A stretch of 64,000 bases of DNA from an uncultured Gammaproteobacteria bacterium (GTDB lineage: Bacteria > Patescibacteriota > Microgenomatia > JAMCZE01): positions 19,260 to 83,259 of the forward strand of contig CAZSSJ010000002.1 in assembly GCA_964609775.1 (NCBI GenBank). The letters are read 5' to 3'. Under the pieces are notes generated by a model. It saw only the letters and a list, made by a program, of their open reading frames with translations. It searched no databases and was not told where the DNA came from. The position numbers and the translations under genes are program-made. Positions 15,768 through 57,293 of the stretch are shown one piece after another. Within the stretch, counting starts at the first letter, position 1, and every line of letters begins with the position of its first letter.

Positions 15768-15770
15768 TCT

Positions 15771-26402: not shown

Positions 26403-26820
26403 CTTTCTCTGCACTAAGGACTGGATCCTCGGCGATGTTCCCCTTCAGCTCTGGGAAGCAACCACCGCCGATGGTCCCACCGCGAACGCTTTGCTGACTC
26501 GGTTTCTCCATAATAAGCCGATGTTTTATTTGGACAATTTTCTCCGCTGCTATCTGTCCTATCTTTCGGCAGACTTTTTGGTCAAAGCCTTCTCTCTCTT
26601 AGGATTAGGACTTTTCATTTTCGGAGTCTACCAAGCCATCCGACAGCGAAGAAAATGGCTGTTAAGCATTGTTCTAATGACCCCGTTGTTCCCCCTTTTT
26701 CAATTTCCCGCGGCTAACTTAGCCCAGGGAGTTCTTCTTTATGGTTCACAATTAGCCCTGATCTTGTTTGGTCTCCAACAACTCATTAAAATTCTAATAC
26801 AAAAATTCCGTGCGCCTTAA
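26374..26820 (+). CDS. Small membrane protein resembling the central segment of the flanking GT39-like paralogs (relic or mini-gene)
   Basis: 148-149 aa (GTG 26371 or ATG 26374). NFLRCYLSYLSADFL..LLGLGLFIFGVYQAIRQRRKWLLSIVLMTPLFP..PAANLAQ parallels NYLSHLDPAFLF..PFIILGLIYLIRHRPKYLALLLIWFVLSPVPA of the gene at 32907. It lacks the DE loop. Confidence 0.4.
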   Translation: MLPFASMNFNFLCTKDWILGDVPLQLWEATTADGPTANALLTRFLHNKPMFYLDNFLRCYLSYLSADFLVKAFSLLGLGLFIFGVYQAIRQRRKWLLSIVLMTPLFPLFQFPAANLAQGVLLYGSQLALILFGLQQLIKILIQKFRAP

Positions 26821-32910: not shown

Positions 32911-34478
32911 CTAGGAAAGTAGTTTTTTTCTTAATCATCGTTCTTGCCGCCCTGCTGCGCCTGGCCTATCTGGCAGGAGCCCCCCCGAGTCTCAATTGGG
33001 ACGAGGTCTCGGTCGGTTGGAACGCCTATTCTCTTTTAACAACCAGCCGTGACGAATATGGCCAGTCCTTTCCTCTCTCCATTCGCTCCTTCAACGACTA
33101 TAAACCTCCCCTCTACACCTACGCGACCGCTGCCGCCATGGCTCTTCTTGGCAAAACTGAGATTGCCGTCCGGTTGCCTTCCGCTCTGGCCGGCCTTTTA
33201 ACGGTGGTTTTAATTTTTTTCCTTGGTCGAGTGAGCGGGCTGGGTGGCAAAGCGAACTTCCGTTTTGCCTATCTCTCCGCTTTCCTTCTGTCCGTCTCCC
33301 CCTGGCACATCCAGCTTAGCCGTATTGCCTTTGAAGCCAGTCTGGCCCTCTTTTTTTTCCTCTTTGGACTGGCCTTGATACTTTTCTATTTCCGTCACCC
33401 CACCACAAAGCTGCTGGCCATCCTCAGCGCTACCGGTTTTGTTCTGTCAACTTACGCTCACCATAGTGTCAAGATATTTCTACCGTTGTTTACCCTCCTC
33501 TTTGCTGCGGCTTACCGTCAACAAATTACTAAAAACTGGCCCAAACTACTTCCTGCCCTTGTCATTGGCGCGATCCTTCTTCTACCTCTAGGAAGAAACA
33601 TGCTCTACACCTCTGGTCAAGCCACCCGGGCACTTACGGTGAGCATTTTCGCCCCGGAAAACCAATTTCATTTCCAGGGAAAATCAACGCTGCAAGTTTT
33701 GACGGAAAACTATCTGTCTCATCTTGATCCCGCCTTCTTGTTCTTTGGCCGGGGTGACAATCCCCGGCATCACGCCCCAGATACAGGTGTTGTCCTCCTC
33801 TGGACTGCCCCCTTTATCATTCTTGGTCTAATTTACCTCATCAGACACCGACCAAAATATCTCGCGCTGCTCCTAATTTGGTTTGTCCTATCGCCCGTCC
33901 CGGCGATTCTCTCCATCGACAATCCCCACGCCAGCCGCTCCTTTCTCAGCCTCCCCATCTACGTTTTTCTCACTGCGCTGGGAATACTGTTTCTTGCCAA
34001 GCGAAGAGCGCTTGCCGCTTTGGGCATAGGGTTGCTGTTGGTGTTTAATCTGCTCTATTTCTTCCATCAATACTTTAGCGATCTGTCGATAAGAGATGCC
34101 CCGGCTTGGCAGTATGGTTATAAACAGCTTGTCGAACGCCTCGACTCTGTCTCTTCTAGTCGCTACCGGAAAATTTATGTCTCCACTGCCTATGACCAAC
34201 CCTACATTTATTTTCTTTTCTATGGCCACTCCGACCCATGGATAAAAAATGACGGCAGTTTTTCCCAAGCGTTGGGAAAAATCTCTTTTGTCAACTTTAA
34301 AAATTGGAGGCAATCCGATTGGGACGCCCTTGACGCTGACGATCTATTAGTTCTAACTTCAACTGATCCCCAAGATGGCTTAACAATCATTGAGGAGATA
34401 AACTATCCCGATAGTCAGGTTGCTTTTCGAATTACTCAACCAATCTCACGCCATGGCGTAATTTTGATTACACCCTAG
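32907..34478 (+). CDS. PMT_2/GT39-like GT-C glycosyltransferase (array member 5, recent duplicate of 31249)
   Basis: GTGA overlap. Motifs: LNWDEVSVGWNAYSLLTTSRDEYG, FNDYKPPLYTY and YDQPYIYFLFYGHSDPWIKNDG. A 47-nt stretch differs from the copy in gene 31249 at only 2 positions. Confidence 0.65.
   Translation: MTRKVVFFLIIVLAALLRLAYLAGAPPSLNWDEVSVGWNAYSLLTTSRDEYGQSFPLSIRSFNDYKPPLYTYATAAAMALLGKTEIAVRLPSALAGLLTVVLIFFLGRVSGLGGKANFRFAYLSAFLLSVSPWHIQLSRIAFEASLALFFFLFGLALILFYFRHPTTKLLAILSATGFVLSTYAHHSVKIFLPLFTLLFAAAYRQQITKNWPKLLPALVIGAILLLPLGRNMLYTSGQATRALTVSIFAPENQFHFQGKSTLQVLTENYLSHLDPAFLFFGRGDNPRHHAPDTGVVLLWTAPFIILGLIYLIRHRPKYLALLLIWFVLSPVPAILSIDNPHASRSFLSLPIYVFLTALGILFLAKRRALAALGIGLLLVFNLLYFFHQYFSDLSIRDAPAWQYGYKQLVERLDSVSSSRYRKIYVSTAYDQPYIYFLFYGHSDPWIKNDGSFSQALGKISFVNFKNWRQSDWDALDADDLLVLTSTDPQDGLTIIEEINYPDSQVAFRITQPISRHGVILITP
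34448..34459. promoter_or_regulatory. Perfect 12-bp palindrome ACGCCATGGCGT, copy 1 (candidate operator or insertion scar)
   Basis: Read directly. It lies in the last 31 nt of the GT39-like CDS and 16 nt beyond the stop of the minus-strand gene. An identical copy sits at 35146-35157. Confidence 0.4.
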
Positions 34479-35122
34479 ACACCGAAGTATTTTCGAAACT
34501 GTTCATCATTTTCAATCCTTTCAGCCAGAATTAATCGGACCTCGCCATTAATTCCCAGGAAACTTCGGAGAAACTCGACTTGAGTCTCGCAAGGATAGGC
34601 ATGAATATAGACACTTTCCTGAAGTGGATAAAAGCCTGCGCTCCGAAGAATCCGTTGAAATCTGTCTCTGATTGACTTTTTGCTACTTTTTATATCGTAG
34701 AAAACGAGCCACCATTTATGATCCCATTTTGACGGTGGATCAATTTTCACCGATTCGATCGCAAACTGAAGAACTTTTGTTTTCCCCTTTTCCGTGATTT
34801 TGACAGTTTGGTAGTCTCCCATACCCTCGGTCTCAATTATTTTTTCCCTTTGTAAACGTCTAATTGTGTTTTGTAAATAGCGGCGGTTAAACAATTTCCA
34901 GTCATCCCAATCAGACCTATCTGGTTGAAAGAAAGTGAGCAGGCGAGTGCTTCGGGGTGAGGCGATGGCTAAAGCCAGACTAGAACCCGCTGCTAGAAGC
35001 AAGAGCACTTTTTTAATTTTTTCGTTACGCTCTCGGGCTTTGCTAGTGACCAGTTGTTTTAAGAGAAAATCACTCAGCTCTTTAGGTAGATCATGGGGAA
35101 GTGTCTCAGAACGGTTATCCAT
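34475..35122 (-). CDS. Membrane-anchored wHTH plus Cas2-fold (PaaX-like) putative transcriptional regulator
   Basis: Only minus-strand gene inside the locus. One TM segment (VLLLLAAGSSLALAIA). wHTH-like YLQNTIRRLQREKIIETEG..VKITEKGK. C-terminal WWLVFYDIKSSKKSIRDRFQRILRSAGFYPLQESVYIH fits the Cas2/PaaX_C ferredoxin-like pattern. Confidence 0.5.
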   Translation of the reverse strand: MDNRSETLPHDLPKELSDFLLKQLVTSKARERNEKIKKVLLLLAAGSSLALAIASPRSTRLLTFFQPDRSDWDDWKLFNRRYLQNTIRRLQREKIIETEGMGDYQTVKITEKGKTKVLQFAIESVKIDPPSKWDHKWWLVFYDIKSSKKSIRDRFQRILRSAGFYPLQESVYIHAYPCETQVEFLRSFLGINGEVRLILAERIENDEQFRKYFGV

Positions 35123-35128
35123 AAGATG

Positions 35129-35137
35129 AATATAGCA
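35129..35137 (-). promoter_or_regulatory. Extended -10 element TGcTATATT for the minus-strand regulator (leaderless geometry)
   Basis: The reverse complement of 35129-35137 is TGCTATATT. The 3' end of the hexamer is 6 nt from ATG (35122). No Shine-Dalgarno sequence lies between them. Confidence 0.35.
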
Positions 35138-35145
35138 CCAAACCT

Positions 35146-35157
35146 ACGCCATGGCGT
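35146..35157. promoter_or_regulatory. Perfect 12-bp palindrome ACGCCATGGCGT, copy 2, at the -35 position of the regulator promoter
   Basis: Read directly. It starts 9 nt upstream of the extended -10 on the minus strand. The flanking bases partly repeat the copy 1 context (..TGAT.A.A.CC). Confidence 0.45.
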
Positions 35158-35308
35158 TTTAATGATGATAACCGATTTTGTTAAACAATTAAAAGTTTTT
35201 AATCAAATCGGGGGAATTGAATTATTAAACTTCATGAATGCCTTTATGAATGTCATTTCCAAGCAGGTGAAATTCCAGAGCGTTCTGGAGAATTTTGACC
35301 AGATACTG

Positions 35309-35317
35309 TGTTAGAAT
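35309..35317 (+). promoter_or_regulatory. Extended -10 element TGtTAGAAT upstream of the GT2 gene at 35326 (near-leaderless geometry)
   Basis: tgtTAGAAT ends 8 nt before ATG 35326. TTGACC at 35295-35300 is only 11 nt upstream, so it is not a normally spaced -35. No SD sequence is visible. Confidence 0.3.
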
Positions 35318-35325
35318 CTTAATAT

Positions 35326-36075
35326 ATGTCTAGCAAAAAGCCTAAAGTAATTGTCGTCATGCCGGCATACCACGCCGAAAAAACAATTGAAAAAACCTTT
35401 GCCGAAGTGCCGAAAGGTTTGGTCAATGAGATCATCCTTGTTGACGATGCCGGCGGCGACAAAACCATCGCTATTGCCAAAAAACTGGGAATCACTGTCT
35501 ATCAGCACTCTCACAATTTAGGTTATGGCGGCAACCAGAAAACTTGCTATTGGGAAGCCCTCAAAAGAAATCCCGACGTGGTCGTCATGCTCCATCCCGA
35601 CTATCAATATAATGGCAGCAAGATTAAAGGTCTGGTCGATCCAATTTTAAACGGTGACTATGACATGATGTTCGGCAGCCGAATCAAAAGTCGGGGCATG
35701 GCCCTGACCGGGGGAATGCCCAAGTCAAAATATTTTTCCAACCGCCTCTTCACCCTGTTTGCTAATATTCTCCTTGGCGAGAATCTCTCCGAGTACCTAA
35801 GCGGGCTTCGAGCCTACAGTCGGAAGTGCTTGGAAAGTGTGCCCTACCAAAGATTTTCTGACGACTTTGCTTTTGATCAACAGTTCACCGTTTCCGCCAT
35901 TGCCAAAAATCTTCGTATTGGCGAAATTCCCATCCCGACACGCTATCATGTCGAGCAACACACCCTTCCTTTAATTAGTTTTCGAGGAGTCAAATTTGTT
36001 GTCGAAAGTTACTGGATCATCTTTCTCTATCTTCTCCGAAAAGCAAATGTGTATAAAAGCAAAATTTTCGACTGA
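35326..36075 (+). CDS. GT2, DPM1-like polyprenyl-phosphate sugar synthase candidate
   Basis: Motifs: VIVVMPAYHAEKTIEKT, ILVDDAGGDKT and VVMLHPDYQYNGSKI. One C-terminal hydrophobic segment (FVVESYWIIFLYLL). Confidence 0.65.
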   Translation: MSSKKPKVIVVMPAYHAEKTIEKTFAEVPKGLVNEIILVDDAGGDKTIAIAKKLGITVYQHSHNLGYGGNQKTCYWEALKRNPDVVVMLHPDYQYNGSKIKGLVDPILNGDYDMMFGSRIKSRGMALTGGMPKSKYFSNRLFTLFANILLGENLSEYLSGLRAYSRKCLESVPYQRFSDDFAFDQQFTVSAIAKNLRIGEIPIPTRYHVEQHTLPLISFRGVKFVVESYWIIFLYLLRKANVYKSKIFD

Positions 36076-36081
36076 TCGTTT

Positions 36082-37539
36082 ATGTGGACGAAATTTTCCT
36101 CAGCAGCCTTGTTAATTTTGCTCATCTCCACCTCTCTTCATTTTTACGGCCGATCCTTCACCAACTTTTTCTTCCAGGACGATTTTTTCAATATCACCCT
36201 GTCTCAAAGTCAAAGCATTATTCAATCTTTTAACATTTTTTCTAAGCCGATACTTGACTTCTATTTCTTCCGACCGCTGACGACCCAGCTTTTTTGGGGC
36301 GTGACTTTTCCCGTCTTCGGGTGGAATGTCGCTCCATATCACCTAATCGTATCAATATTTTTTGCCATAAACATATTTTTCATCTATTGGCTATCAACGC
36401 TCCTGACAGACAAAAAGCCCATCGCTCTCTTAACCACATTCCTGTACGCCTTCTCCGCCACGCATTTCCATCGTCTGTTTTTTCTGTCACAGTTCCAAGA
36501 GATCGGCCTGACTACTTTTGTTCTACTGACAATAATATCCTATATTAAAAACAGCAAGCTTTCTTTAGTCTTTTTCATTCTCGCTTTGACAAGCAAGGAA
36601 ACTGCCGTTGTCACTCCAATCTTCCTCCTCGTCTTCAGTGTCCTATCAAGTCGCAAACAATACCGGCTTCTAGCACTGCATTTTCTAATCCTGGGAGTCT
36701 ACTTATTTCTTCGTTTCACCTTTTTTGGTTTTGCCTCTGGGGGCCCGTACACCTACGATTTTAATCCACTCCACGTCATCAATAACTATGTTTGGTACGG
36801 CCTTTGGGCCTTGGGCATCCCGGAGTCTTTCGTCAATTTGAAACTGTTTTTTGTCAACAGATATGATGATCTGGGACAGTGGCAATCGTTCTCGTTTATT
36901 AATCCCGATATATTCACTGCTTTTGGAATCTGGGGCGGGCCAATTATTCTTGTCTTCGCACTTTTGTTGTTAACTCTAATTCTAGCCCTAAACAAAAAAA
37001 ACTGGACCCATTTCTTCCGTCGAGAAAGCATTTTCGCCTCCATGATATTTATCATCTTCCTTTTGCCAGTTGCCTTCTTTCCTTTCCATAAATTTGCCTA
37101 CAGCTTAACACTTCCGGCCATAGGCCTGTCTCTGTTTCTGGCCAACCTACTTATCAATTTTTCTCTGCGTTTCCAAATCTTGTCCCTTGTCTTCTTCATT
37201 GCCCTCTCCTTTTTTACGACTCAATACAATGTTTCCGAGCACTGGGCAGTCAAGAAGGCGATAGTAGCCAAATTGGCTTGGGAATATTTCCGTCAAAACC
37301 ACCCGGAAAACATCACTGCGGACAACATTTATTTTCGAAATACTGACGCGCCCTATTGCTCGATTCTGAAAAATAAATTTAAACCCTCGCAGGAAGTGGC
37401 CTATGGTCTCGGCGGAGCCGATAGCCTCAGGCTTCTCTACAACAACCCAGAGTTGAAAGTTTATTTTGAAGACTTTGACGACAATCATCATTTGATGGCC
37501 GATTCTTTGATGATCGATTCTCGGCAGTTTTTGCCATGA
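36082..37539 (+). CDS. Polytopic membrane protein, GT-C candidate with a loop-1 DD motif
   Basis: 485 aa. TM1 is followed by FTNFFFQDDFFNITLSQ (acidic pair as in PMT/TMTC-type GT-C). Ten or more hydrophobic segments and a short soluble C-terminus. Confidence 0.4.
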   Translation: MWTKFSSAALLILLISTSLHFYGRSFTNFFFQDDFFNITLSQSQSIIQSFNIFSKPILDFYFFRPLTTQLFWGVTFPVFGWNVAPYHLIVSIFFAINIFFIYWLSTLLTDKKPIALLTTFLYAFSATHFHRLFFLSQFQEIGLTTFVLLTIISYIKNSKLSLVFFILALTSKETAVVTPIFLLVFSVLSSRKQYRLLALHFLILGVYLFLRFTFFGFASGGPYTYDFNPLHVINNYVWYGLWALGIPESFVNLKLFFVNRYDDLGQWQSFSFINPDIFTAFGIWGGPIILVFALLLLTLILALNKKNWTHFFRRESIFASMIFIIFLLPVAFFPFHKFAYSLTLPAIGLSLFLANLLINFSLRFQILSLVFFIALSFFTTQYNVSEHWAVKKAIVAKLAWEYFRQNHPENITADNIYFRNTDAPYCSILKNKFKPSQEVAYGLGGADSLRLLYNNPELKVYFEDFDDNHHLMADSLMIDSRQFLP

Positions 37540-39206
37540 AAGCCAACACCTTAGCGATCGTTATCATTATTTTCTTAGGGCTTTTTGCCATTCAGGCGCT
37601 CTTCACCCCCGGCTTCTACACGAGCCACGACGGCGCCACCCACGCTGCCCGGATTGCCAACTACTTCCTTGCCCTTGCAGACCACCAGTTTCCCCCCAGG
37701 TGGGCTCCGCTTCTTAATGGCGGGATGGGCTCGCCGATTTTTGTTTACATCTATCCCTTGCCCTATTTTCTCGGCGCGTTAGTTCACGCCATTGGGCTAT
37801 CTTTTACCGACAGTTTTAAAGCCATCCTTGGTCTGGCCTACATTGCTTCCGGAATAACTTTTTATATTTGGATGCGCAAACACTTTGCGGTCTGGTCTTC
37901 TCTTGCAGCGGCAGCAGTTTATCTGTTTGCTCCCTATCGCTTTTCCCTGTTGTTTGTTCGGGCTGCTTTTGCCGAAAGTATTGCCTACACTTTTGTTCCC
38001 CTGGTTTTTTTATCTATCGACCAAATGTTTTCCTCTAAAAATACGCGAAGATCAATTGCCTTCGGAGCAATGTCCACCAACCTTTTGCTACTGTCTCATA
38101 ATCTGGTAGCCTTCATCTTCTTGCCATTAGCCTTTTTGTATTCATTAGTCCTTTTCTGTCAAAGCAAAAAACTGTCAGCACTAATCAACTATTTTCTTTG
38201 CACCATCTTTGGATTTTTAATCTCTGCCTTTATCTACGTCCCGGACTTTCTAGAAAAAAAATACATCCGCTTTGACGAATTGATTAGTTATTATCAGAAT
38301 CACTTCGTCTATTTTTGGCAGTTCCTCCGCTCACCCTGGGACTATGGCTTTTCTTTCCTTGGTCCAGCTGACGCCATGAGTTTTCAAATCGGACTCGGCC
38401 AGCTTCTTGTACTGATTTTCTCACTGGTAATCTTGATCAGAATAATTATCTTCAAGAAGAAAGATAAACACTTCGCCAAGCTGATTTTCTTTTTAACCCT
38501 TTTTGCCGCTGCGGTGCTCTTAATGCTCGAAAGTCCCTTGAGTCGAATCCTCTGGAAAAACATTCCGGGACTCTCAACGATTGACTACCCCTGGCGGCTT
38601 TTGGGCATCACCACCTTTTCTCTGGCTGCTGTTTCAGGCGTTGTCGTCGACCAAAGTGGAAAAAGACTGAAAACGCTCCTGGCGACTGTCATTATTCTCG
38701 GAGTGCTCATTGCCAATCGCCACCATTTGCGCATTAATCAGCAAGTTTTCCTTCCTGATTCCCAATTTCTTTCCTACAGTGGTTCCGCGACCCATCTTGG
38801 CGAGTTTACCCCTGTCACTCGCGCCAGCTCAAAATTCATTCCTTTCCCCGACACCATCCAGGTCGTTTCCGGAAAAGCCACCATCGTCAAGCAAACAGAA
38901 AAGTCTGCAGGTAAAAAGTACCTCATCAATGCCTCGGAAAAGACCAAAATTCGCCTCAACACCCTCTATTTTCCCGGATGGCAAATTGCTCTTGATGGTA
39001 AAGTTCTGCGTTTGGAGACCGATTTCCAAATCACCGGGGACACCAATTTGAAAACTGACGTTGACCAGAGCGGACTTATATACGTCGACGTCTCTAAAGG
39101 TAAGCACGTGTTGACGGCTAAGTTCGCGGAAACTCCGGTGCGCCAGATAGCCGATTTCATGTCTCTCGGGTCGTTTGTTGTAGTATTAATCTTGCTTGTT
39201 ATCTAA
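37536..39206 (+). CDS. PTPS-related-type polytopic membrane protein (GT-C candidate), paralog 3
   Basis: ATGA overlap. Motifs: SHDGATHAARIANYFLALADHQFPPRWAPLLNGGMGSPIFVYIYPLPYFLG and C-terminal LYFPGWQIALDGK. Confidence 0.5.
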   Translation: MKANTLAIVIIIFLGLFAIQALFTPGFYTSHDGATHAARIANYFLALADHQFPPRWAPLLNGGMGSPIFVYIYPLPYFLGALVHAIGLSFTDSFKAILGLAYIASGITFYIWMRKHFAVWSSLAAAAVYLFAPYRFSLLFVRAAFAESIAYTFVPLVFLSIDQMFSSKNTRRSIAFGAMSTNLLLLSHNLVAFIFLPLAFLYSLVLFCQSKKLSALINYFLCTIFGFLISAFIYVPDFLEKKYIRFDELISYYQNHFVYFWQFLRSPWDYGFSFLGPADAMSFQIGLGQLLVLIFSLVILIRIIIFKKKDKHFAKLIFFLTLFAAAVLLMLESPLSRILWKNIPGLSTIDYPWRLLGITTFSLAAVSGVVVDQSGKRLKTLLATVIILGVLIANRHHLRINQQVFLPDSQFLSYSGSATHLGEFTPVTRASSKFIPFPDTIQVVSGKATIVKQTEKSAGKKYLINASEKTKIRLNTLYFPGWQIALDGKVLRLETDFQITGDTNLKTDVDQSGLIYVDVSKGKHVLTAKFAETPVRQIADFMSLGSFVVVLILLVI

Positions 39207-39212
39207 CAACCA

Positions 39213-39971
39213 ATGAAACTTTCCGTTGTCCTGGCCACTTTCAACGAGGAACAAAATATTGATCGCTGCCTCAAAGCCGTTTTCAAATGGGCTGACGAAA
39301 TTGTCGTTGTTGACGGTCGTTCCACTGACAAAACCATCGCTATTGCCCGAAAGTTCAAAGCCAGGATCATCGTCACAGATAATCCTCCGATGTTCCACAT
39401 CAATAAACAAAAAGCCATCGACGCGGCGAAAGGTGATTGGGTTTTGCAACTGGACGCTGATGAAGTTGTCACTCCCGAGCTTAAGAAAGAAATTGATTTC
39501 ACAATGAATAGTGATCCCGATGAAAATGGTTTTTGGATTCCCAGAAAAAATTACTTCCTTGGTAAGTTTCTGACTAAAGGGGGGGCCTATCCCGACTACA
39601 CTCTGCGCCTCTATCGCCGGACTAAAGGCCGCCTTCCTTGTAGGAGCGTTCATGAGCAAGCAGTCGTTGAAGGTAAGATCGGCTATCTAAAAAATCCCAT
39701 TTTGCACTATGCCGACCCCACTTTTGGCCGCTACATTGAAAGATTCAACCGCTACACTGATCTAGCCGCTCACAATGTTACCGGAGGCCTGCTGACAAAT
39801 CTTTTGTGGAAACCGCTTTTTGACCCTCTGCAAGGTTTTTTGCTCATCTACTTTCGTCACTTGGGCTTTCTCGACGGCTTTCCAGGATTTATCTGGGCCC
39901 TCTTTTCCGCCCTCAATTTTCCGATTGCATACTTTAAATCAATTGACATCAAAGAGGGGAGAGTGACCTAA
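39213..39971 (+). CDS. GT2 glycosyltransferase (WaaE/KdtX-like subfamily)
   Basis: Motifs: LSVVLATFNEEQNIDRCLKAVFKWADEIVVVDGRSTDKT and QLDADEVVT. Paralog of the genes at 14874 and 18375. Confidence 0.75.
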   Translation: MKLSVVLATFNEEQNIDRCLKAVFKWADEIVVVDGRSTDKTIAIARKFKARIIVTDNPPMFHINKQKAIDAAKGDWVLQLDADEVVTPELKKEIDFTMNSDPDENGFWIPRKNYFLGKFLTKGGAYPDYTLRLYRRTKGRLPCRSVHEQAVVEGKIGYLKNPILHYADPTFGRYIERFNRYTDLAAHNVTGGLLTNLLWKPLFDPLQGFLLIYFRHLGFLDGFPGFIWALFSALNFPIAYFKSIDIKEGRVT

Positions 39972-39972
39972 C

Positions 39973-41022
39973 TTGCGCCTTGGTTTTGTCCGGCCACCGA
40001 ATGCGGGGAATTTGATAAGAGGTGTCGGTACTTACGCTGATCACTTATATATTGCCTTGCAGAATGCTGGGGTGGGGGTGCATTGGCTTTCCCCGACATA
40101 CCCGGTGCTAAACGCCAGTAATTTCGACCTGATCCATTATCCCTATTTTGACCTCTTCTTTCTGACACAACCAATAACACTAGGTAAGTCAGTTATCACT
40201 GTTCATGATTTGACACCCTTAGTTCTTCCGAAATATTTCCCTGCAGGACCAAGAGGCCATCTTAAGTGGCAAGTCCAGAAAAATATCCTCCGAACTTCTT
40301 CGGCCGTCATCACCGTTTCCCAGGCTTCTAAAAAAGACATTGTCAACATAACTGGTTTGAAACCAGAAAAAATAATAGTTACTTACGAAGCAGCAGGCGA
40401 AAGTTTCCGGAAGCTAACCAGCTTGGCCCAGCTAAAGACCGTTAAAAATAAATTGGCCTTACCTGAAAAGTTTCTGCTTTATGTTGGTGACGTCAACGCC
40501 AATAAAAATATTCCCATGTTGCTTGAGGCCTTTGCGCAGTTTAAAAAAACTTCTCTCGGGGGAACCTTTTCCCTCGTGCTTGCCGGTGGAGCTTTCTTTA
40601 AAAAAGATCTTTTAGAGACAGAAAATATCCGGAGGTTGATCGAAGAGCTCAAGATTAAAAACGCCGTCATCCTTCCCGGTTTCGTGGAAACAAGCGACCT
40701 CGTCGGCCTCTATAATCTCGCCTCCGCCTACATTCAACCATCGCTCTATGAAGGTTTTGGTCTGCCGGTCTTGGAAGCCATGGCTTGCGGCACTCCGGTG
40801 ATCTGCGGACGAAACAGCAGCCTTCCTGAAGTGGCCGGGGACGCTGCTATCTATACAGACGTGACTAACGTAGCTGAATTTGCCCACACTATTACCTCGG
40901 TGGTCAGCTCTCCCAGGGATAAGTACACGCCAAAATGTCTTGCTCAGGCGGCCAAATTCAGCTGGGATAAAACCGCCAAGGAAACAATCGCTGTCTATGA
41001 GAAAGTTCTTAAAAACAAATAG
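39973..41022 (+). CDS. GT4 (group 1, GT-B) glycosyltransferase
   Basis: TTG start. Motifs: FLLYVGDVNANKNI and PSLYEGFGLPVLEAMACGTPVICGRNSSLPEV. Confidence 0.8.
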   Translation: MRLGFVRPPNAGNLIRGVGTYADHLYIALQNAGVGVHWLSPTYPVLNASNFDLIHYPYFDLFFLTQPITLGKSVITVHDLTPLVLPKYFPAGPRGHLKWQVQKNILRTSSAVITVSQASKKDIVNITGLKPEKIIVTYEAAGESFRKLTSLAQLKTVKNKLALPEKFLLYVGDVNANKNIPMLLEAFAQFKKTSLGGTFSLVLAGGAFFKKDLLETENIRRLIEELKIKNAVILPGFVETSDLVGLYNLASAYIQPSLYEGFGLPVLEAMACGTPVICGRNSSLPEVAGDAAIYTDVTNVAEFAHTITSVVSSPRDKYTPKCLAQAAKFSWDKTAKETIAVYEKVLKNK

Positions 41023-42100
41023 CTTTGTCATCACCGTCTTTGTCATTTGGCGCCTGGCGATGTTTCTCCTTGGCCTGCCGGGGTTTTCCATCCTGACCTT
41101 CAAAGCCAGCTTCCCCAAAATTGACGAGATGCTCATCGCCTCTGGCTTTCCTCAGTGGCTGTGGCAGTGGGGAAACTTCGACGGCGTGCACTATCTGGAC
41201 ATTGCCCAAAACGGCTATCACGGCTCTGGGCTCCAGGTCTTTTTCCCCGTCTTTCCGCTCCTGATAAAACTGGGCAGTTTCCTTACCGGCAACTACTTTC
41301 TCTCCGGTCTGGTGATCTCCAATTTGGCCATTTTGCTTGCGGGCATAACTTTATTTCAGCTTGTCAGCCGTGACTTCGACAACAAAACAGCCCGTTGGGC
41401 GGTCATCTTTTTGTTCGCCTTTCCCACTTCATTTTTCTTCGGCAGCGTCTATACCGAGTCGCTCTTTCTTCTTTTTCTCTTGCTCACTTTTCTCAAAACC
41501 GGCTGGCTTTCCGGGCTTTTCTCTTTTCTTGCCGGTGGAACCAGGTTAGTCGGAGCTTTTCTTACTCCGGTGCTGGTCGCTTTTCGACCAAGAAACTGGT
41601 GGGGGATTCTTGCTGGAGGCGGCATCGGACTTTATATCTCCTACTTAACACTAACTTTCGGCAATCCGTTCTATTTTCTAACCGGCCAAGGAGCCTTCAA
41701 AAACGCCAGGGCCAATTCTCTTGAGTCCTTAGTCCTTCCTCCGCAAGTGCTTTACCGTTACATCAAAATCTTAACCACCGCGAGTCCTGCCCACTATGAC
41801 TATTGGATTGCCGCACTCGAGTTGGCTGCTTTCATCTTTGGCCTCATCATAGTGCTTTACTTAACACTCAGGAAAAAAATGCCCGCTCCCTACCTCATTT
41901 TTTCCTTCCTGGCGCTTCTCCTCCCTAGCTTTTCCGGCACTCTGTCATCCATGCCCCGCTATCTATTGTCAATTTTCCCGATCTTTATCGGTTTAGCTAT
42001 AATCAAAAATAACTCTGTTAAAGTTGGCATCGTGACGCTTTTTACACTATTATTAGCCGCATTGACAATCCTTTTTACCCGAGGCTACTGGGTCAGTTGA
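40997..42100 (+). CDS. PIG-V-like (GT76-type) GT-C mannosyltransferase candidate
   Basis: Start chosen at ATG 40997 (MRKFLKTNSFVITVFVIW). The motif WGNFDGVHYLDIAQNGYHG..VFFPVFPLLIK resembles the WD..YL.IA..GY signature of Mannosyl_trans2. Polytopic. Confidence 0.5.
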   Translation: MRKFLKTNSFVITVFVIWRLAMFLLGLPGFSILTFKASFPKIDEMLIASGFPQWLWQWGNFDGVHYLDIAQNGYHGSGLQVFFPVFPLLIKLGSFLTGNYFLSGLVISNLAILLAGITLFQLVSRDFDNKTARWAVIFLFAFPTSFFFGSVYTESLFLLFLLLTFLKTGWLSGLFSFLAGGTRLVGAFLTPVLVAFRPRNWWGILAGGGIGLYISYLTLTFGNPFYFLTGQGAFKNARANSLESLVLPPQVLYRYIKILTTASPAHYDYWIAALELAAFIFGLIIVLYLTLRKKMPAPYLIFSFLALLLPSFSGTLSSMPRYLLSIFPIFIGLAIIKNNSVKVGIVTLFTLLLAALTILFTRGYWVS

Positions 42101-42103
42101 CAC

Positions 42104-42784
42104 GTGCCAAAAATCCTAGTTGTCATCCCTGCTTTTAATGAACAAGCTACCTTGCTCTCCGTCCTATCCGACGTGTTAAAGAACATCCCGGCTGATGTAC
42201 TTGTCGTCAACGACGGGTCTTCTGATTCGACTAAAGATATAGCGCTTAAAAACAATGTCTTTGTGGTCTCCCACGTCGCCAACCGCGGTCTTGGCGCGGC
42301 CTTGGGAACCGGTTTTGAGTTTGCCAGGAAAAGAGATTATGACATTTTGGTCACTTTCGACGCGGATGGTCAACACACTTCGAAAGACGCCTTAAAACTC
42401 ATCCGGACAATCGACAAGGGGAGAGCAGATGTGGCTATCGGCAGCCGGCTTTTGACCAAAACTGCGATGCCTTTGGATCGAAAAGTGCTCAACTATCTGA
42501 GCGACCTGTTAACCTATATTTTCTATGGTGTCTGGACAACAGACTCCCAGTCCGGTCTGCGGGCTTTTAATAAGGAGGCAATTTCAGAAATTAAAATTAT
42601 GACTGACCGCATGGAGGTCAGCAGTGAATTTTTTAGAGAGATAAAACGCAATCATTTAACTTTTAAAGAAGTCGCCATTCAGGCAATCTACACTGATTAT
42701 AGTTTGTCAAAAGGCCAGGACAAAAAGGGTAATTGGAATGCTTTGTCGATTGGAGTTAAAATGCTCTTAAGGCTTTTTTCCTAA
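42104..42784 (+). CDS. GT2, DPM/DPG-synthase-like
   Basis: GTG start. Motifs: ILVVIPAFNEQATL, LVVNDGSSDST, NRGLGAALGTGF and TFDADGQHTSKD. Confidence 0.7.
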   Translation: MPKILVVIPAFNEQATLLSVLSDVLKNIPADVLVVNDGSSDSTKDIALKNNVFVVSHVANRGLGAALGTGFEFARKRDYDILVTFDADGQHTSKDALKLIRTIDKGRADVAIGSRLLTKTAMPLDRKVLNYLSDLLTYIFYGVWTTDSQSGLRAFNKEAISEIKIMTDRMEVSSEFFREIKRNHLTFKEVAIQAIYTDYSLSKGQDKKGNWNALSIGVKMLLRLFS

Positions 42785-43129
42785 GTGACACTAATTCAAT
42801 TGCTACTATCGATCTTTCTGCTCTTTGCTCTCAGCCGGGTGATATTGCGCTTCCGTGGCGGCCAACTCTCACCCTTAGAATTCGCCTTTTGGTCGATCCT
42901 CTTCGTGGCAGCAATTTTTGGAATTTTTCTCCCCGAGCAAACGTCGCAACTGGCTAAAATATTAGGAATTGGTCGAGGAGCAGACCTGGTCGTTTATGTC
43001 TCAATTGTAATCATTTTCTACCTTGTTTTTAGACTCTATATTATGATCGAGAATCTCCGTCACGAAATAACCGAGATTGTCAGAAAAATAGCTCTGGAAA
43101 ATGTCATCAAATCGAAAACAAAAAAGTAA
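42785..43129 (+). CDS. DUF2304-type small membrane protein (GT2 partner)
   Basis: GTG start directly after the GT2 stop. 114 aa. The pattern LSRVILRFRGGQL..FAFWSILF..LAKILGIGRGADLVVYVSIVIIFYLVFRLY..ENLRHEITEIVRKIAL is typical of DUF2304. Confidence 0.65.
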   Translation: MTLIQLLLSIFLLFALSRVILRFRGGQLSPLEFAFWSILFVAAIFGIFLPEQTSQLAKILGIGRGADLVVYVSIVIIFYLVFRLYIMIENLRHEITEIVRKIALENVIKSKTKK

Positions 43130-44235
43130 TGAAAATTTTGTGGATCACTGAGTTTTTCCCCGCAACTTCGGCCGGAGAAATAACGGGGGGAGTTGAAGCG
43201 CGCTGTTTTTATGTCAGCCGATACCTTAAAAAGAGGGGAGTAGAACTAGAAGTCATTACCCGTCCCACCGGAGGAGAAACATGGTATCATGCTTCCCTCT
43301 CTTCAATCCCCAATAGGATCCTTTTTACCCTCAAAGCGATCATTAAAGGACTTGGAACTGACTTTGATCTGGTCGAGGGCTCGAACTCCGCCACCTATCC
43401 AGTTGCTGCCCTTTTGGGACTCCTTAAAAGAAAGCCAATCGTTTTTTGGTACCCCGACGTCTTCCAAGGAAGTTGGGTCGCCAAAGTGGGTTTAGTGGGC
43501 ATTCTTGGTAATATCTCAGACTGGATACTTTTCAAGATGCCAAACGTTCACTACATTGCCATCAGCCAGACAACGAAGCGTAAGCTCATGTCTAAGGGCG
43601 TAAGCGAGCTTAAAATTACCGTTATCTATTGTGGCATTGAACCAAAGGAGATATCCGCAATTAAAACTAATGGTCAGAAGACCACCCTCTCAGCCGTCAG
43701 CCGCTTAGTTGCCTATAAACACCTCGACGAGTTGATTAAAGCCGGGCAAATTCTCGTCCAAAAGCATCCCGACCTCAGCGTTAGCATTATTGGCCAAGGG
43801 CCGGAGGAACAAAAGTTAAAAAACCTGGCCAAAAGAATCGGGGTGGCAAAAAATATCAATTTTTTGGGATTTGTTAAAGACCACAAAGACGTTCTCGGAG
43901 TGGTCAATAAGTCCCAAGTTTTTGTGCACCCCTCGACTGTAGAAGGCTTTGGCATTGCTTTAATGGAGGCGGCAGCGCTGGGCGTTCCCTATGTTGCCGC
44001 TCGTCTTCCTATAGTCACGGAAGTGACTCGGACTGGCCAAGGAGGACTGCTGTTTGCAGCCGGAAATCACCACGATTTAGCTTCGAAAATTGACCAGCTC
44101 TTAACCTCTCGAAAGTTATATTTAACCAAGGCCAAACAAGCTGCTGCCCTCGCCGCCCACTACTCTTGGCATGAAGCCGCAAAGCAAACAGAGCGTCTTT
44201 ACAGGAAACGTGTCCAGAACAAAGCGATAGCATGA
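43129..44235 (+). CDS. GT4 (group 1, GT-B) glycosyltransferase
   Basis: TAATG overlap. Motifs: MKILWITEFFP and HPSTVEGFGIALMEAAALGVPYVAARLPIVTEV. Confidence 0.8.
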   Translation: MKILWITEFFPATSAGEITGGVEARCFYVSRYLKKRGVELEVITRPTGGETWYHASLSSIPNRILFTLKAIIKGLGTDFDLVEGSNSATYPVAALLGLLKRKPIVFWYPDVFQGSWVAKVGLVGILGNISDWILFKMPNVHYIAISQTTKRKLMSKGVSELKITVIYCGIEPKEISAIKTNGQKTTLSAVSRLVAYKHLDELIKAGQILVQKHPDLSVSIIGQGPEEQKLKNLAKRIGVAKNINFLGFVKDHKDVLGVVNKSQVFVHPSTVEGFGIALMEAAALGVPYVAARLPIVTEVTRTGQGGLLFAAGNHHDLASKIDQLLTSRKLYLTKAKQAAALAAHYSWHEAAKQTERLYRKRVQNKAIA

Positions 44236-45302
44236 AAGTGGATACGGATATGAAAATAGTAATTCTCACTGATGCTTGGACACCAATTTGGGGCGGTGGC
44301 CAAAAACATATTTGGGAGGTTTCTAAACGTTTAACTACTAATTACGATTGTCAAATAGATATTCTAGTCCCCAATCTTGTCAACGACGGTAAAACTCACC
44401 CGGATGAGGAAAAGTATTTTTCTGACAAATTGGTTATTCGCCGGTTGGGCAAGCCATTCGTTTTTCCTGATATCTTTGGCCGGAGTTTGTTTCTCCTCTT
44501 CTGCTTATCTTGGCCACTGACCCACGATTATGACATCATCCACGCCCACGCCTATCAATTTGTCCTCTTCCCGTTGTTAAGACTACTTCGTCCTCGCACT
44601 AAGCTTGTCTACACTCTCCACGGCGCCGGGGTCAACTTGCTCGGTGGCGCAGTCCTAAACACCTTCAAAATTCCCAAGTTAATCTGGGAGTTTTTTGTTC
44701 ATCACTTCCCTTATGATCTGTTGACGACAGTTGCCAAAAGCACCATCATCGCTCCTGTAGCTGCCAAAAAACTGGCCGTTGTCCCTAACGGTGTCGATAC
44801 CACATTGTTCGATAAGTTTAAGGAGCATAAGGATCCCCACAAGTTTAAGATTCTTTGGGTGGGGAGAATTGCCGATCCCGTCAAGGGCGTCAAGTATCTT
44901 GAGGAAGCAGTGGAGGAAATACAGCGCACTGATCCTAGAGTCAAGCTATCTTTAGTCACAAACAAATTTGGGGACGATTTGATAAAAGAATATAAATCAA
45001 GTGACTTGTTCGTTTTGCCATCCCTATCAGAAGGGCTACCATTAACTCTTCTTGAGGCGATGGCCGCCAAATTGCCCGTTGTGGTCACCGATGTTGGTGA
45101 TTGTAAAATGATTGTCAACTCAGCCCATTGCGGTGAAGTCGTCCCGCCAGCAAGCTCTTCTTCACTCGCGGCCGCAATCTTCAGAATGATTGACAGCAAG
45201 GATCGTCAAAAACTCGGTCTAAACGGTTACAATTTTGTCAAGGGGCACTACCTTTGGGACGAAATCGCCTCGAAGATCTACAGGGCATATCAAAATGTTT
45301 AA
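44232..45302 (+). CDS. GT4 (group 1, GT-B) glycosyltransferase
   Basis: ATGA overlap (alternative ATG at 44250, MKIVILTDAW). Motifs: ILWVGRIADPVKGVKYL and LPSLSEGLPLTLLEAMAAKLPVVVTDVG. Confidence 0.8.
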   Translation: MKVDTDMKIVILTDAWTPIWGGGQKHIWEVSKRLTTNYDCQIDILVPNLVNDGKTHPDEEKYFSDKLVIRRLGKPFVFPDIFGRSLFLLFCLSWPLTHDYDIIHAHAYQFVLFPLLRLLRPRTKLVYTLHGAGVNLLGGAVLNTFKIPKLIWEFFVHHFPYDLLTTVAKSTIIAPVAAKKLAVVPNGVDTTLFDKFKEHKDPHKFKILWVGRIADPVKGVKYLEEAVEEIQRTDPRVKLSLVTNKFGDDLIKEYKSSDLFVLPSLSEGLPLTLLEAMAAKLPVVVTDVGDCKMIVNSAHCGEVVPPASSSSLAAAIFRMIDSKDRQKLGLNGYNFVKGHYLWDEIASKIYRAYQNV

Positions 45303-46365
45303 AATTTTCTCGGCCGGCCTTGCCATTATTTTGATTCTTTTTGGTCTTCCCAACCTGGAATCCAAAAACATTACCAAAGCCAAACTGCTCATTGCCGACG
45401 TTTCTAAGGAGCCAGAACTCGAAACCTACACAACGGATATGAAAGCCTATCTACGAACTTATTACCAACTTAGGGCGGGCAAACCATATTATGAATCTCT
45501 TGGCAAGTCAGTCGTTGGTGATGCCACCAGAGACAATCTTCCCGGTGAAATCTGGGGTTGGAAACTACCGTTTATTTTTTATTTTTGGTCACTTTTACCA
45601 GGACCATCGGGAGTAGGTGTCTATGTCATTTTTATTTTTCTTCTCAGCGCCACCCTTTTTGCAAGTTTTAAGCTTTCCCAAAGAATAATTGGCAAATATG
45701 CACTTTTCTCTCCCTATCTTTTGGTTGGTTATTTTATTTTGCCATTGACAGAAATAACCATATTTCAGGTAGAATGGTGGGCCGTCTGCTTTTTCATCAT
45801 CGCCCTTGCGTTTTTGGTTTATGACAGAAAACTTTTTGCTGGAATGTTCTTTATGACTTCAATTTTCACTCGTGAACTTTTTGTCTTCCACCTAGCGATG
45901 CTCGCCCTTGTGTGTTTCCTTCTTCGAAGACGCCGCTATTTGTTGCCTCTTGTCATTCCACCCATACTCCTTATTCTCTTCTATTCATTCTATCACTTAG
46001 GCCAGGTCTATAGGTTCGAAAATTTCGGCCCGCTGACCACCTGGTGGCGCCAAGGCATCGATCGGGGCTGGCACCTTGTTAGACCAACGTTGAGTTTTTC
46101 CTCGCAGAACTATTTTTTCTTTTTTCTTCATCCTTTCAGGTTCTTTCTGCTCTTTGCTACAATTGGCCTACTAAGTCTTCTTATCAAAAATAAAGACAAG
46201 CTGTTGCCACTTTTGGCCCTTTTCTCCTTCCTGCCTTTTTTCTTGTTTATTTTTTTCTTCGGCATCCAAACAAAATGGCAGGATTACTGGGGAATATATT
46301 ATTTGCCGCTAGCCATTATTTTCGCACCAACCATTTTAACTTTGTTTCCCTATGCCAAAAAATGA
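45295..46365 (+). CDS. Polytopic membrane protein, function unknown
   Basis: Start chosen at ATG 45295 (MFKIFSAGLAIILILFGL). About 9 hydrophobic segments. I recognise no motif. Confidence 0.4.
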   Translation: MFKIFSAGLAIILILFGLPNLESKNITKAKLLIADVSKEPELETYTTDMKAYLRTYYQLRAGKPYYESLGKSVVGDATRDNLPGEIWGWKLPFIFYFWSLLPGPSGVGVYVIFIFLLSATLFASFKLSQRIIGKYALFSPYLLVGYFILPLTEITIFQVEWWAVCFFIIALAFLVYDRKLFAGMFFMTSIFTRELFVFHLAMLALVCFLLRRRRYLLPLVIPPILLILFYSFYHLGQVYRFENFGPLTTWWRQGIDRGWHLVRPTLSFSSQNYFFFFLHPFRFFLLFATIGLLSLLIKNKDKLLPLLALFSFLPFFLFIFFFGIQTKWQDYWGIYYLPLAIIFAPTILTLFPYAKK

Positions 46366-47593: not shown

Positions 47594-48354
47594 AAGCTGA
47601 TATCACCGTTTTGATGAGCGTGTACAACAACGAACGAACCGTTGGCAAGAGCATAGAAAGTATCCTGTGGCAAACCTATCCGCACTTTGTTTTTGTCATT
47701 ATTAATGACGGTTCGACTGACAATTCATCAAGCCAGATAAGGAAATTCAGTGACAAAAGAATAGTATATATAGACAAAAATAAAAATCTGGGCCTCACCA
47801 GAAGGCTTAACGAGCAACTGGATAATGTAAGTACTCATTATGTCGCTCGAATGGATGCCGATGACATTAGCCGTCCAGACCGCCTGGAGAAACAGCACAA
47901 CTTTATGACCACTCACCAAAGCTACGGGGCCGTCGGCAGCAATTTTAAAAGAGTCAATGCCCAAGGAAGTCTTCTGTGGGAAAGTGATTTCCCTCTTTCC
48001 TCAAAAGACATCAGGCAAAGAATTCTTTTGAAAAATCCCTTCAAGCACTCGATTCTCTTTTTTCGAACGGAAATTCTTAAAACATTGGGGGGATACAACG
48101 AAAAGTTTAAATATAGCCAGGACTACGACCTAATGCTCCGTCTGACTGCCAAATATCCTGTCGCCAATCTAAAGGAATGCTTACTCGTTGACAATCACCT
48201 TGACTCTGCCCTTTCCCAAACCCACCGTTTTGACCAAGCCAAATTTGCCACCTTGGCCCAAATAAATGCTCTCAGGCGGGGAGACTATCCGCTCTTTCAA
48301 AGCGTTTTCTTGTTTCGTTCTTTGGGGTATCTTTTTAAATCATGGTTAAGTTAG
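47590..48354 (+). CDS. GT2 glycosyltransferase (SpsA/WcaA-like)
   Basis: ATGA overlap. Motifs: ITVLMSVYNNERTVGKSIESILWQTY, VIINDGSTDNS and ARMDADDIS. Confidence 0.8.
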   Translation: MKADITVLMSVYNNERTVGKSIESILWQTYPHFVFVIINDGSTDNSSSQIRKFSDKRIVYIDKNKNLGLTRRLNEQLDNVSTHYVARMDADDISRPDRLEKQHNFMTTHQSYGAVGSNFKRVNAQGSLLWESDFPLSSKDIRQRILLKNPFKHSILFFRTEILKTLGGYNEKFKYSQDYDLMLRLTAKYPVANLKECLLVDNHLDSALSQTHRFDQAKFATLAQINALRRGDYPLFQSVFLFRSLGYLFKSWLS

Positions 48355-49349
48355 TCAATTACGAACTTGAGTCCATTCCCGTCCCCTTTCGCCTCTCCTG
48401 GGGCAAACTGGGCTATTCCCGGCATGTCTATGTGACTGTCGAAAACGAAAAGGGGGCAAAGGGTCGGGGCGAAGGGGTGCTGTACAAAACCACGCATCTA
48501 GAACTACTGCCATATCTTGAGAATAGATTTACTCTCGATTTGGAGAGACTAGCCGCCTTCGAACCAGCGCTTGCCTTTGCCGTAGACACCGCTCATCTTG
48601 ACCTAAAAGGGAAAATTTTAGTCGTGCCGCCTAACCCCTCTGTCGTTCGCGAAATCTTTATGGAAGACCAGGATCTGGAACAATCTGTCAAAGAGATAGC
48701 AACTCAACACACAAGCGCGATTAAACTAAAAGTCGGGGCGGGAGTAGAGAATGACAAAAAGACCCTTGTTCAGGTTCACCACCTCACCAAGGGCAAGATC
48801 AAAATTCACCTCGACGCCAATCGGGCATATAATTTAAAAGACGCCTTAGAGTTGGCCAGTTTTGCCAGCGCTAGGGGAGTGACTCTTTTTGAGGAACCGG
48901 TCTCTGGAGGCTTTCCTATCGTCGGAGAATTTAAACGGGCATCCAATCTGCCGGTGATGCTTGATGAAAGCATCCAGTCTGCGGCCGATCTGGAAAGTGC
49001 CATTAGAGAAAAATGCTTCGACATCCTAAATATTAAACTCAGCCGGCTGGGCGGTATAACCTTAGCCCAAAGGTACGTTCAGCGCTGCACTCAAGCCGGG
49101 CTAAGAATCTATCTTGGCTGTAGTGAAGAGCTAGAAACGGGCACCCGAGCAATTTTCACTTTGGCAAAATCAACAAAAAATCTTTATGCGGTTGAGGGGC
49201 TGGGCTTCGAAAGATTAGCCGGTCGGGAGGGCTTCCACTACAGTCTTGGAGAAGGTAGTCGGCGACTCTTTTTACTCAAAGAGTTTTCTGGTCTTTGGGC
49301 CACCAGAATTGAAAATTGCCTTAATTACACACTAGCGAAGATAAGGTAA
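48342..49349 (+). CDS. Enolase-superfamily enzyme, MLE subgroup (OSBS / N-acylamino-acid racemase / dipeptide epimerase-like)
   Basis: Motifs: AIKLKVG (KxK), HLDANRAY (Asp ligand), LFEEPV (Glu ligand), VMLDESI (Asp ligand) and ILNIKLSRLGGI (second catalytic Lys). Confidence 0.7.
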   Translation: MVKLVNYELESIPVPFRLSWGKLGYSRHVYVTVENEKGAKGRGEGVLYKTTHLELLPYLENRFTLDLERLAAFEPALAFAVDTAHLDLKGKILVVPPNPSVVREIFMEDQDLEQSVKEIATQHTSAIKLKVGAGVENDKKTLVQVHHLTKGKIKIHLDANRAYNLKDALELASFASARGVTLFEEPVSGGFPIVGEFKRASNLPVMLDESIQSAADLESAIREKCFDILNIKLSRLGGITLAQRYVQRCTQAGLRIYLGCSEELETGTRAIFTLAKSTKNLYAVEGLGFERLAGREGFHYSLGEGSRRLFLLKEFSGLWATRIENCLNYTLAKIR

Positions 49350-57284: not shown

Positions 57285-57293
57285 ACTTTTGCT

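Follow-up and report, generated by a model that had tools for sequence, protein, structure and literature searches.

The closest described counterparts of the genes reported here come from two bacterial polysaccharide systems. In the synthesis of the Streptococcus pyogenes group A carbohydrate, the family 2 glycosyltransferase (GT2) GacI makes GlcNAc-P-undecaprenol, the DUF2304 protein GacJ associates with GacI in a complex and lowers its Km for undecaprenyl phosphate, and the GT-C-type glycosyltransferase GacL moves GlcNAc onto polyrhamnose, which an ABC transporter exports (Rush et al., bioRxiv 10.1101/180810). In mycobacteria, PpgS (Rv3631) is a polyprenyl-phospho-N-acetylgalactosaminyl synthase stimulated by the DUF2304 protein Rv3632, and the GT-C Rv3779 transfers the sugar made by PpgS to arabinogalactan; PpgS does not rescue a conditional mutant of Ppm1, the mannose-donor synthase (PMC3485146). 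Here we describe a comparable arrangement in a 64,000-nt stretch of DNA (the window; contig CAZSSJ010000002.1, positions 19,260 to 83,259) from a Microgenomates bacterium of the Candidate Phyla Radiation (CPR). Four adjoining genes at window positions 39973–43129 encode, in order, a family 4 glycosyltransferase (GT4), a GT-C membrane protein, a GT2 without transmembrane (TM) segments and a DUF2304 protein.

We read these genes, with a probability of roughly 60%, as the core of a three-part extracytoplasmic glycosylation module (a synthase of a lipid-linked sugar plus its DUF2304 activator, then a flippase and a transferase of GT-C type) within a large locus for an exported glycan. Positions 42104–43129 would encode a two-part polyprenyl-phosphate sugar synthase, with the soluble GT2 as catalytic subunit and the three-TM DUF2304 protein as its partner. 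On the cytoplasmic face, this synthase would load undecaprenyl or polyprenyl phosphate with a sugar, most likely an N-acetylhexosamine (HexNAc), taken from a nucleotide sugar. The lipid-linked sugar would then be flipped across the membrane, and the PF04188-type GT-C would hand it to an acceptor on the outer face, probably a glycan that nearby GT2 and GT4 enzymes build and the Wzm/Wzt-TagGH-type transporter at 56472–58574 exports. Family membership, fold, coupling of the genes and conserved synteny are shown; the pairing of this GT-C with this donor, the sugar, the flippase and the acceptor are inferred. Several donor-synthase/GT-C sets occur in this surface-glycan locus of more than 64 kb, and the module is one of them. 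An earlier, sequence-only reading of this DNA had seen in it a toolkit like those for glycosylphosphatidylinositol (GPI) anchors or phosphatidylinositol mannosides (PIM). The part of that idea that stands is a glycan built outside the membrane from lipid-phosphate-sugar donors; for GPI or PIM, a phosphoinositide primer and mannan there is no specific support. The module looks instead like an ordinary bacterial lipid-carrier sugar kit for a cell-surface glycan.

The tight coupling of the four genes, already noted in the sequence-only reading, is borne out by coordinates, overlaps and Pfam matches (Table 1). The GT4 and GT-C genes overlap by 26 nt, 3 nt separate the GT-C stop from the GT2 start, the DUF2304 start codon abuts the GT2 stop codon, and the next GT4 gene overlaps the DUF2304 gene by 1 nt; coupling within the four genes is translational. 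The ATG start of the GT-C gene is confirmed by a 367-aa NCBI protein of 100% identity (UY21_C0001G0042) from Microgenomates group bacterium GW2011_GWA1_48_10. A promoter and terminator scan of positions 34000–46000 gave no clear break within the module; promoter-like sites were somewhat above expectation (25 vs. 15.3, sd 3.7, in shuffled sequence) and terminator-like sites near it (19 vs. 14.7, sd 3.2). Rfam and tRNA scans of the window were empty. The family calls made earlier (GT4, PF04188-type GT-C, GT2 of the polyprenyl-phosphate-sugar-synthase type and DUF2304 in the module, PIG-L and GT87 elsewhere) all hold, on profile matches that are significant and not due to chance.

Table 1. Features of the glycan locus, in window coordinates, with the profile matches that identify them.
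Feature	Position	Strand	Evidence
GT2 (252 aa), upstream partner of the module	39213–39971	+	PF00535 76.4 bits; homologue upstream of GT4/GT-C in most related loci
GT4 (349 aa)	39973–41022	+	PF00534 115.6 bits
GT-C-fold membrane glycosyltransferase, PF04188/PIG-V-like (367 aa)	40997–42100	+	PF04188 32.6 bits
GT2 (226 aa), putative polyprenyl-phosphate sugar synthase of PpgS/GacI type	42104–42784	+	PF00535 88.5 bits
DUF2304 protein (114 aa, 3 TM), putative GacJ/Rv3632-type partner/activator of the GT2	42785–43129	+	PF10066 75.7 bits, E 3.9e-21
Two further GT4s	43129–44235 and 44232–45302	+	PF00534 129 and 86 bits; order kept in related loci
MOP/Wzx-type flippase, candidate for lipid-linked sugars or oligosaccharides	13423–14877	+	PF13440 160.7 bits; NCBIfam MOP flippase 122.7 bits
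ABC-2 polysaccharide exporter: Wzm-like permease, TagH/Wzt-like ATPase	56472–57284, 57294–58574	+	PF01061, PF00005
Second candidate donor/transferase pair: YfhO-type GT-C, TM-less GT2	20347–22557, 22554–23237	+	PF09586 79 bits, PF00535 115.6 bits
Third candidate pair: short GT2, 485-aa polytopic protein, PTPS_related GT-C	35326–36075, 36082–37539, 37536–39206	+	
GT87/MptA-B-like GT-C membrane glycosyltransferase (459 aa)	28399–29778	+	PF09594 30.4 bits (cutoff 25)
Acyltransferase-3	55257		PF01757
PIG-L/LmbE-family zinc deacetylase (212 aa, soluble)	60277–60915	+	PF02585 60.2 bits, above the cutoff

The donor side of the module is carried by the GT2 and DUF2304 proteins. The top curated NCBIfam model for the GT2 is PpgS (NF058614), matched over its full length (3–209 of 226), followed by AglJ and Dol-P-hexose transferase, and its relatives in the Protein Data Bank (PDB), DPMS (5mlz, 2.6e-10) and ArnC (3e-7), are all polyprenyl-phosphate glycosyltransferases. 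No TM segment is predicted in the GT2, which has the length (about 230 residues) and character of the GacI/PpgS kind, and three are predicted in the DUF2304 protein, whose PF10066 match spans 2–104 of 106 and whose gene lies immediately 3′ of the GT2 gene, an adjacency that is conserved. This combination is the signature of the characterised GacI/GacJ and PpgS/Rv3632 pairs, which make polyprenyl-phosphate-HexNAc. Given these precedents, the earlier description of the GT2 as DPM-synthase-like is right at the superfamily level, but the specific precedent lies in a HexNAc-P-polyprenol synthase and the activator that goes with it, and not in any component of GPI or PIM synthesis.

The transferase side is the PIG-V-like protein at 40997–42100. 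Its match to PF04188 (32.6 bits vs. a cutoff of 22.4, E 7e-8) is not a chance one, and a precomputed PF04188 match is present in 69 of its 120 best homologues, but the alignment is limited to profile positions 45–174 of 443, and PMT_2 matches the same stretch at 22.7 bits. The motif quoted in the sequence-only reading, WGNFDGVHYLDIAQNGY, is present. In an alignment of 57 homologues, F61, D62, G63, H65 and Y66 are invariant, so that the first outer loop carries an invariant FDGxHY with the acidic D62; S..PRY near the C-terminus is invariant as well. The AlphaFold2 model (pLDDT 95.3, pTM 0.94) has a GT-C fold, and in fold comparisons ALG12, AglB, Pmt4 and ArnT rank above GPI-MT1 and PimE, so that the fold is no nearer to GT-Cs of the GPI pathway than to others. 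A Foldseek search against the PDB returned weak GT-C matches only, none at E≤0.001 and none of them a solved PIG-V structure, and a PDB sequence search with the family profile gave matches at chance level only. The likeness to eukaryotic PIG-V/Gpi18 (GPI mannosyltransferase II; PF04188, GT76) consists of the GT-C fold, the match over the first outer loop and following helices, and the conserved acidic loop motif FDGVHY..IA..GY; the differences are the partial profile match, the polysaccharide-synthesis context and the lack of any other GPI-specific component in the window and its flanks (~6 kb upstream, ~8 kb downstream). Judged by its modelled fold, the protein is a generic GT-C glycosyltransferase with no preference for GPI enzymes. 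As a GT-C, it is predicted to draw on a lipid-phosphate-linked (polyprenyl-phosphate) sugar at the membrane's outer face. The family is very large: at E≤1e-3 it takes in 17,029 cluster representatives (clusters at 50% identity). Four longer proteins with a GT-C domain (P0157, P0167, P0168 and P0170) were considered as Rosetta-stone fusions to a GT2 and rejected; their additional parts were other GT-C-type domains or nothing.

Conservation of gene order was assessed in 80 species-representative loci, essentially all from metagenome-assembled genomes of CPR/Microgenomates type, with 37–60% identity. Of 63 related loci, 61 have a GT4 homologue on the same strand, upstream of the GT-C gene and no more than 3 kb from it. 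Of 59, 43 (73%) have a GT2+DUF2304 pair downstream, again on the same strand, and this proximity is kept down to about 37% identity; in 16 loci, the pair directly adjoins the GT-C gene. Five homologues with 73–40% identity share the order GT2, GT4, GT-C, zero to two inserted genes, GT2, DUF2304, GT4, GT4 and methyltransferase, and in some of them an ABC-2 transporter also stands at the end. The inserted genes recur: 21 loci have a short-chain dehydrogenase/reductase (SDR) epimerase between the GT-C and DUF2304 genes, and in 16 the insert is an SMR/EamA-like membrane protein of 122 aa with four TM segments. The SMR-like protein parallels flippases of the ArnE/F type. The epimerase mirrors the UDP-sugar 4-epimerase of the mycobacterial galactosamine (GalN) system.

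Gene content around this order varies among the relatives. One at 51% identity carries genes for a GHMP kinase, an SDR epimerase and a SIS-domain isomerase (its locus positions 5507–8218), together a heptose-type nucleotide-sugar pathway, with MBOAT and AlgX-like O-acetylation genes farther downstream. The sugar composition of the glycan therefore appears to vary between lineages. Many database records with the locus are titled “uncultured Gammaproteobacteria” or “Pseudomonadales” (third-party annotation), and some of these are single contigs of about 0.7–0.95 Mb; their gene content matches Microgenomates, and the titles look like placeholders or errors.

The module sits in one long plus-strand array of about 50 genes. 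The window encodes 21 polytopic membrane proteins, 16 of which have GT-C-type Pfam matches (eight PMT_2, four YfhO, two PTPS_related, one GT87 and one PIG-V); when all 21 are sorted by likeness, three count as PTPS_related-like and four are left unassigned. The many PMT-like genes and the acyltransferase named in the sequence-only reading are present. At least three further PMT_2-type genes lie upstream of the window, and the locus extends beyond 64 kb. The GT-C-type genes at 358–47593, extraordinarily concentrated on a single strand, form three paralogue groups plus singletons, and identities of 26–47% within groups suggest old tandem duplications. Several short TM-less GT2s of the AglJ/Dol-P-hexose type adjoin GT-C genes, among them the GT2 of the second candidate pair, for which this type is the top match. 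The locus also holds nine GT4s and three to four methyltransferases.

Permease and ATPase genes of a polysaccharide-export ABC-2 transporter adjoin each other downstream of the module. The exporter scores 202 bits against the teichoic-acid export ATPase model of NCBIfam, 188 against galactan Wzt and 80 against galactan Wzm, all below the equivalog cutoffs. The TagH/Wzt-type exporter, the methyltransferases, the MOP flippase and the roughly 20 GT-C paralogues fit a surface glycan that is exported and decorated outside the membrane; the first three, with the acyltransferase, count in favour of the proposed module. In the sequence-only reading, ordinary polymers of the teichoic-acid type, along with the lack of any plausible lipid primer pathway, were to tell against a lipid-anchored glycan, and an exported surface polymer of the conventional kind is what the exporter points to. 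At its C-terminus, the ATPase is extended by about 170 residues that match Wzt_C weakly (24.1 bits, cutoff 30.4). This extension and the three to four methyltransferases hint that chain ends are capped and the cap is recognised, in the manner of O-antigen export of the O8/O9a type.

Set beside the Gac system, the locus shares a soluble GT2 of about 230 residues followed at once by a DUF2304 protein of about 113 residues with three TM segments, a GT-C nearby, and, within one locus, a MOP/Wzx flippase (GacK there), an ABC exporter (GacDE there) and cytoplasmic glycosyltransferases that would build a backbone. It differs in its CPR host, in a GT-C that is PF04188-like, about 370 residues long and of no established relation to GacL, in about 20 GT-C paralogues instead of one, and in that neither a rhamnose pathway nor a GacO/WecA primer was seen here. 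The likeness to PpgS/Rv3632/Rv3779 lies in the curated match of the GT2, the DUF2304 partner and a GT-C that would transfer outside the membrane, and extends to two accessory functions: the GalN system of Mycobacterium and Corynebacterium includes a UDP-sugar 4-epimerase, comparable to the SDR epimerase inserted in the 21 related CPR loci, and in mycobacteria it requires deacetylation by an enzyme not yet named, where this locus has a PIG-L-family deacetylase. Here the window itself contains no epimerase, however, the GT-C is much smaller than Rv3779, and the acceptor cannot be arabinogalactan.

Several points weigh against the proposed module. The PpgS match of the GT2, at 147 bits, falls well below the equivalog cutoff of 370 bits, which makes it a related enzyme and not a PpgS equivalog, and the score does not fix the sugar. 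No characterised member of the GT-C family, bacterial PF04188 members included, was found in the literature, and a literature search on GT-C or mannosyltransferase loci in CPR/Patescibacteria returned nothing relevant. Of the 59 related loci, 16 lack a GT2+DUF2304 pair in the roughly 6 kb downstream of the GT-C gene, and the GT4–GT-C link is tighter than the link from GT-C to GT2, so the GT-C may use a different donor. Neither a priming phosphoglycosyltransferase of the WecA/TagO/WbaP type nor an LCP ligase, as expected for an ABC-dependent pathway, was detected in the window and flanks, though such genes may lie elsewhere in the genome; the acceptor could accordingly be a wall polysaccharide, a protein or a glycolipid.

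The second of these acceptors is the basis of an unlikely, though still appreciable, alternative, in which the GT-Cs of the locus, the PIG-V-like one among them, act on surface proteins such as pilins or S-layer proteins, not on a polysaccharide, in the manner of Pmt enzymes, using polyprenyl-phosphate sugars made by the short GT2s. Eight PMT_2/PMT-type paralogues in the window, the presence of Pmt4 and AglB among the top fold matches of the PIG-V-like protein, and the missing primer and wall ligase would all suit this idea. Membership in PMT_2 does not define the acceptor, however; ArnT, a PMT_2 example, acts on lipid A. Moreover, the conserved coupling to cytoplasmic GT4 and GT2 enzymes, the ABC polysaccharide exporter and the methyltransferases point to a polymer as the substrate.

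Slightly less probable again is that adjacency reflects only the size of the locus, with the GT2/DUF2304 pair feeding other GT-Cs and the PIG-V-like protein using a different lipid-linked donor together with the products of the upstream GT2 and GT4. The stronger linkage of the GT-C to the GT4 (61/63 vs. 43/59) is what this would lead one to expect, one or two unrelated genes often intervene between the GT-C and the pair, and the locus offers at least three candidate donor synthases for its roughly 20 GT-C-like proteins. Against it stands the same-strand proximity kept in nearly three-quarters of the loci across the sampled range of identity, and the inserted epimerase and SMR-like protein themselves fit a donor-supply pathway.

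We consider it improbable that the GT4, PIG-V-like GT-C, GT2/DUF2304 pair, PIG-L and GT87 proteins build a membrane-anchored mannan lipoglycan primed by phosphatidylinositol (PI) or a glycolipid, like GPI or like PIM, lipomannan and lipoarabinomannan. The case for it begins with the PF04188 match and that of the protein at 28399 to PF09594, which is likewise above its cutoff and not due to chance. The nearest folds to the latter protein are GPI-MT1 and ALG3, it also matches PimE, and it falls in the GPI-MT1/ALG3/ALG6/PimE structural group; its homologues match PF26314, a domain of the MptA_B family, which adds to the likeness to PimE, MptA and MptB of Corynebacteriales. Its identity to PimE is only about 12%, however, no Ppm1-type synthase was identified in the locus, and ALG3, whose acceptor is a dolichyl-pyrophosphate-linked oligosaccharide, matches as well as GPI-MT1, so that the fold fixes neither donor nor acceptor, and neither mannose nor PI.

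The other supposed components fare similarly. The PIG-L-family protein has intact motifs (AHPDDE at residues 12–17, HHPHH at 104–108) and no hydrophobic segment, but its gene lies 17 kb from the module, and in related loci no PIG-L gene turned up in the 6 kb read to each side of the GT-C gene. It reaches only 25.8 bits with BshB1, and no close characterised relative was found. The GT4 at 39973 is weakly similar to glycolipid-forming GT4s among many others. Its solved relatives at E≤1e-3 are MshA (C-terminal half only), an SPS-like protein, GlgM, BshA and GlgA, and among NCBIfam models it matches only generic GT4 ones, below their cutoffs. PimA and PimB′ are absent from the matches to solved structures at this threshold, which speaks against the suggested PimA/PIG-A-type role.

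Nor does the GT2 suit a lipoglycan of this kind: the pair resembles PpgS/Rv3632 and GacI/GacJ, not Ppm1, and PpgS, which does not replace Ppm1, cannot supply the mannose donor in vivo. The absence of an undecaprenyl-pyrophosphate primer enzyme in the window and flanks would agree with a lipid-anchored product, but the same region has no gene for PI synthase, inositol metabolism or a CDP-alcohol transferase, a check that the sequence-only reading had itself proposed for the genome, and the TagH/Wzt-type exporter and methyltransferases fit an undecaprenyl-pyrophosphate-linked polymer. CPR bacteria are also regarded as unable to make their own membrane lipids (PMC7242380), which counts against a lipoglycan.

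Most doubtful of all is a route paralleling GPI core assembly on scavenged host lipids, in which Microgenomates would use the GT2–GT4–GT-C core and the PIG-L deacetylase for a membrane-anchored glycolipid or lipoglycan. A HexNAc-lipid formed at the cytoplasmic face would be de-N-acetylated and flipped, and GT-Cs would extend it outside; if true, it would be a previously undescribed class of lipoglycan in CPR bacteria.

PIG-V, PIG-L and GT87 are family names that mark polyprenyl-phosphate-sugar chemistry and not GPI or PIM biology. To our knowledge, there is no experimental knowledge of CPR cell-surface glycans, which probably mediate the attachment of these ultra-small bacteria to their hosts. 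A module conserved in Microgenomates that follows the well-understood logic of donor synthase plus GT-C offers a concrete, testable entry point. More unusual is the locus as a whole, which spans more than 64 kb and has about 20 GT-C-like genes in a small CPR genome (contigs of relatives are about 1 Mb); its number of GT-C paralogues is the most exceptional point.

Several further genes of the locus are worth recording. Only two genes of the window are on the minus strand, a HAD gene at 63007–63588 and, as the sole one inside the array, a 215-aa gene at 34475–35122 with a PaaX central/Cas2-like domain (PF20803, 62.8 bits; PF09827, 27.3 bits). The latter splits the array and is followed by a divergent intergenic region of 200 nt; its product is possibly a regulator of the downstream half. 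An enolase-superfamily (MR_MLE_C) gene at 48342–49349 lies among the glycosyltransferases, which is unusual for a glycan locus, and is kept in the closest relative (its locus positions 9817–10836). Its weak top matches are L-Ala-D/L-Glu epimerase and N-acetyl-D-Glu racemase, and the enzyme might modify an amino-acid or acid-sugar substituent.

The downstream flank (12549–16100 in the flank's own numbering) encodes a cytidylyltransferase (CTP_transf_3), a member of the PhyH family and a NeuB-like synthase of 630 aa that is fused to an AP_endonuc_2 domain; these proteins suggest the supply of a CMP-sugar, nonulosonic-acid-like or similar to 3-deoxy-D-manno-oct-2-ulosonic acid (KDO), to the same glycan. 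The only sizeable gap in the array, of about 400 nt between two PMT_2 paralogues, is filled by a 149-aa hydrophobic open reading frame at 26371–26820.

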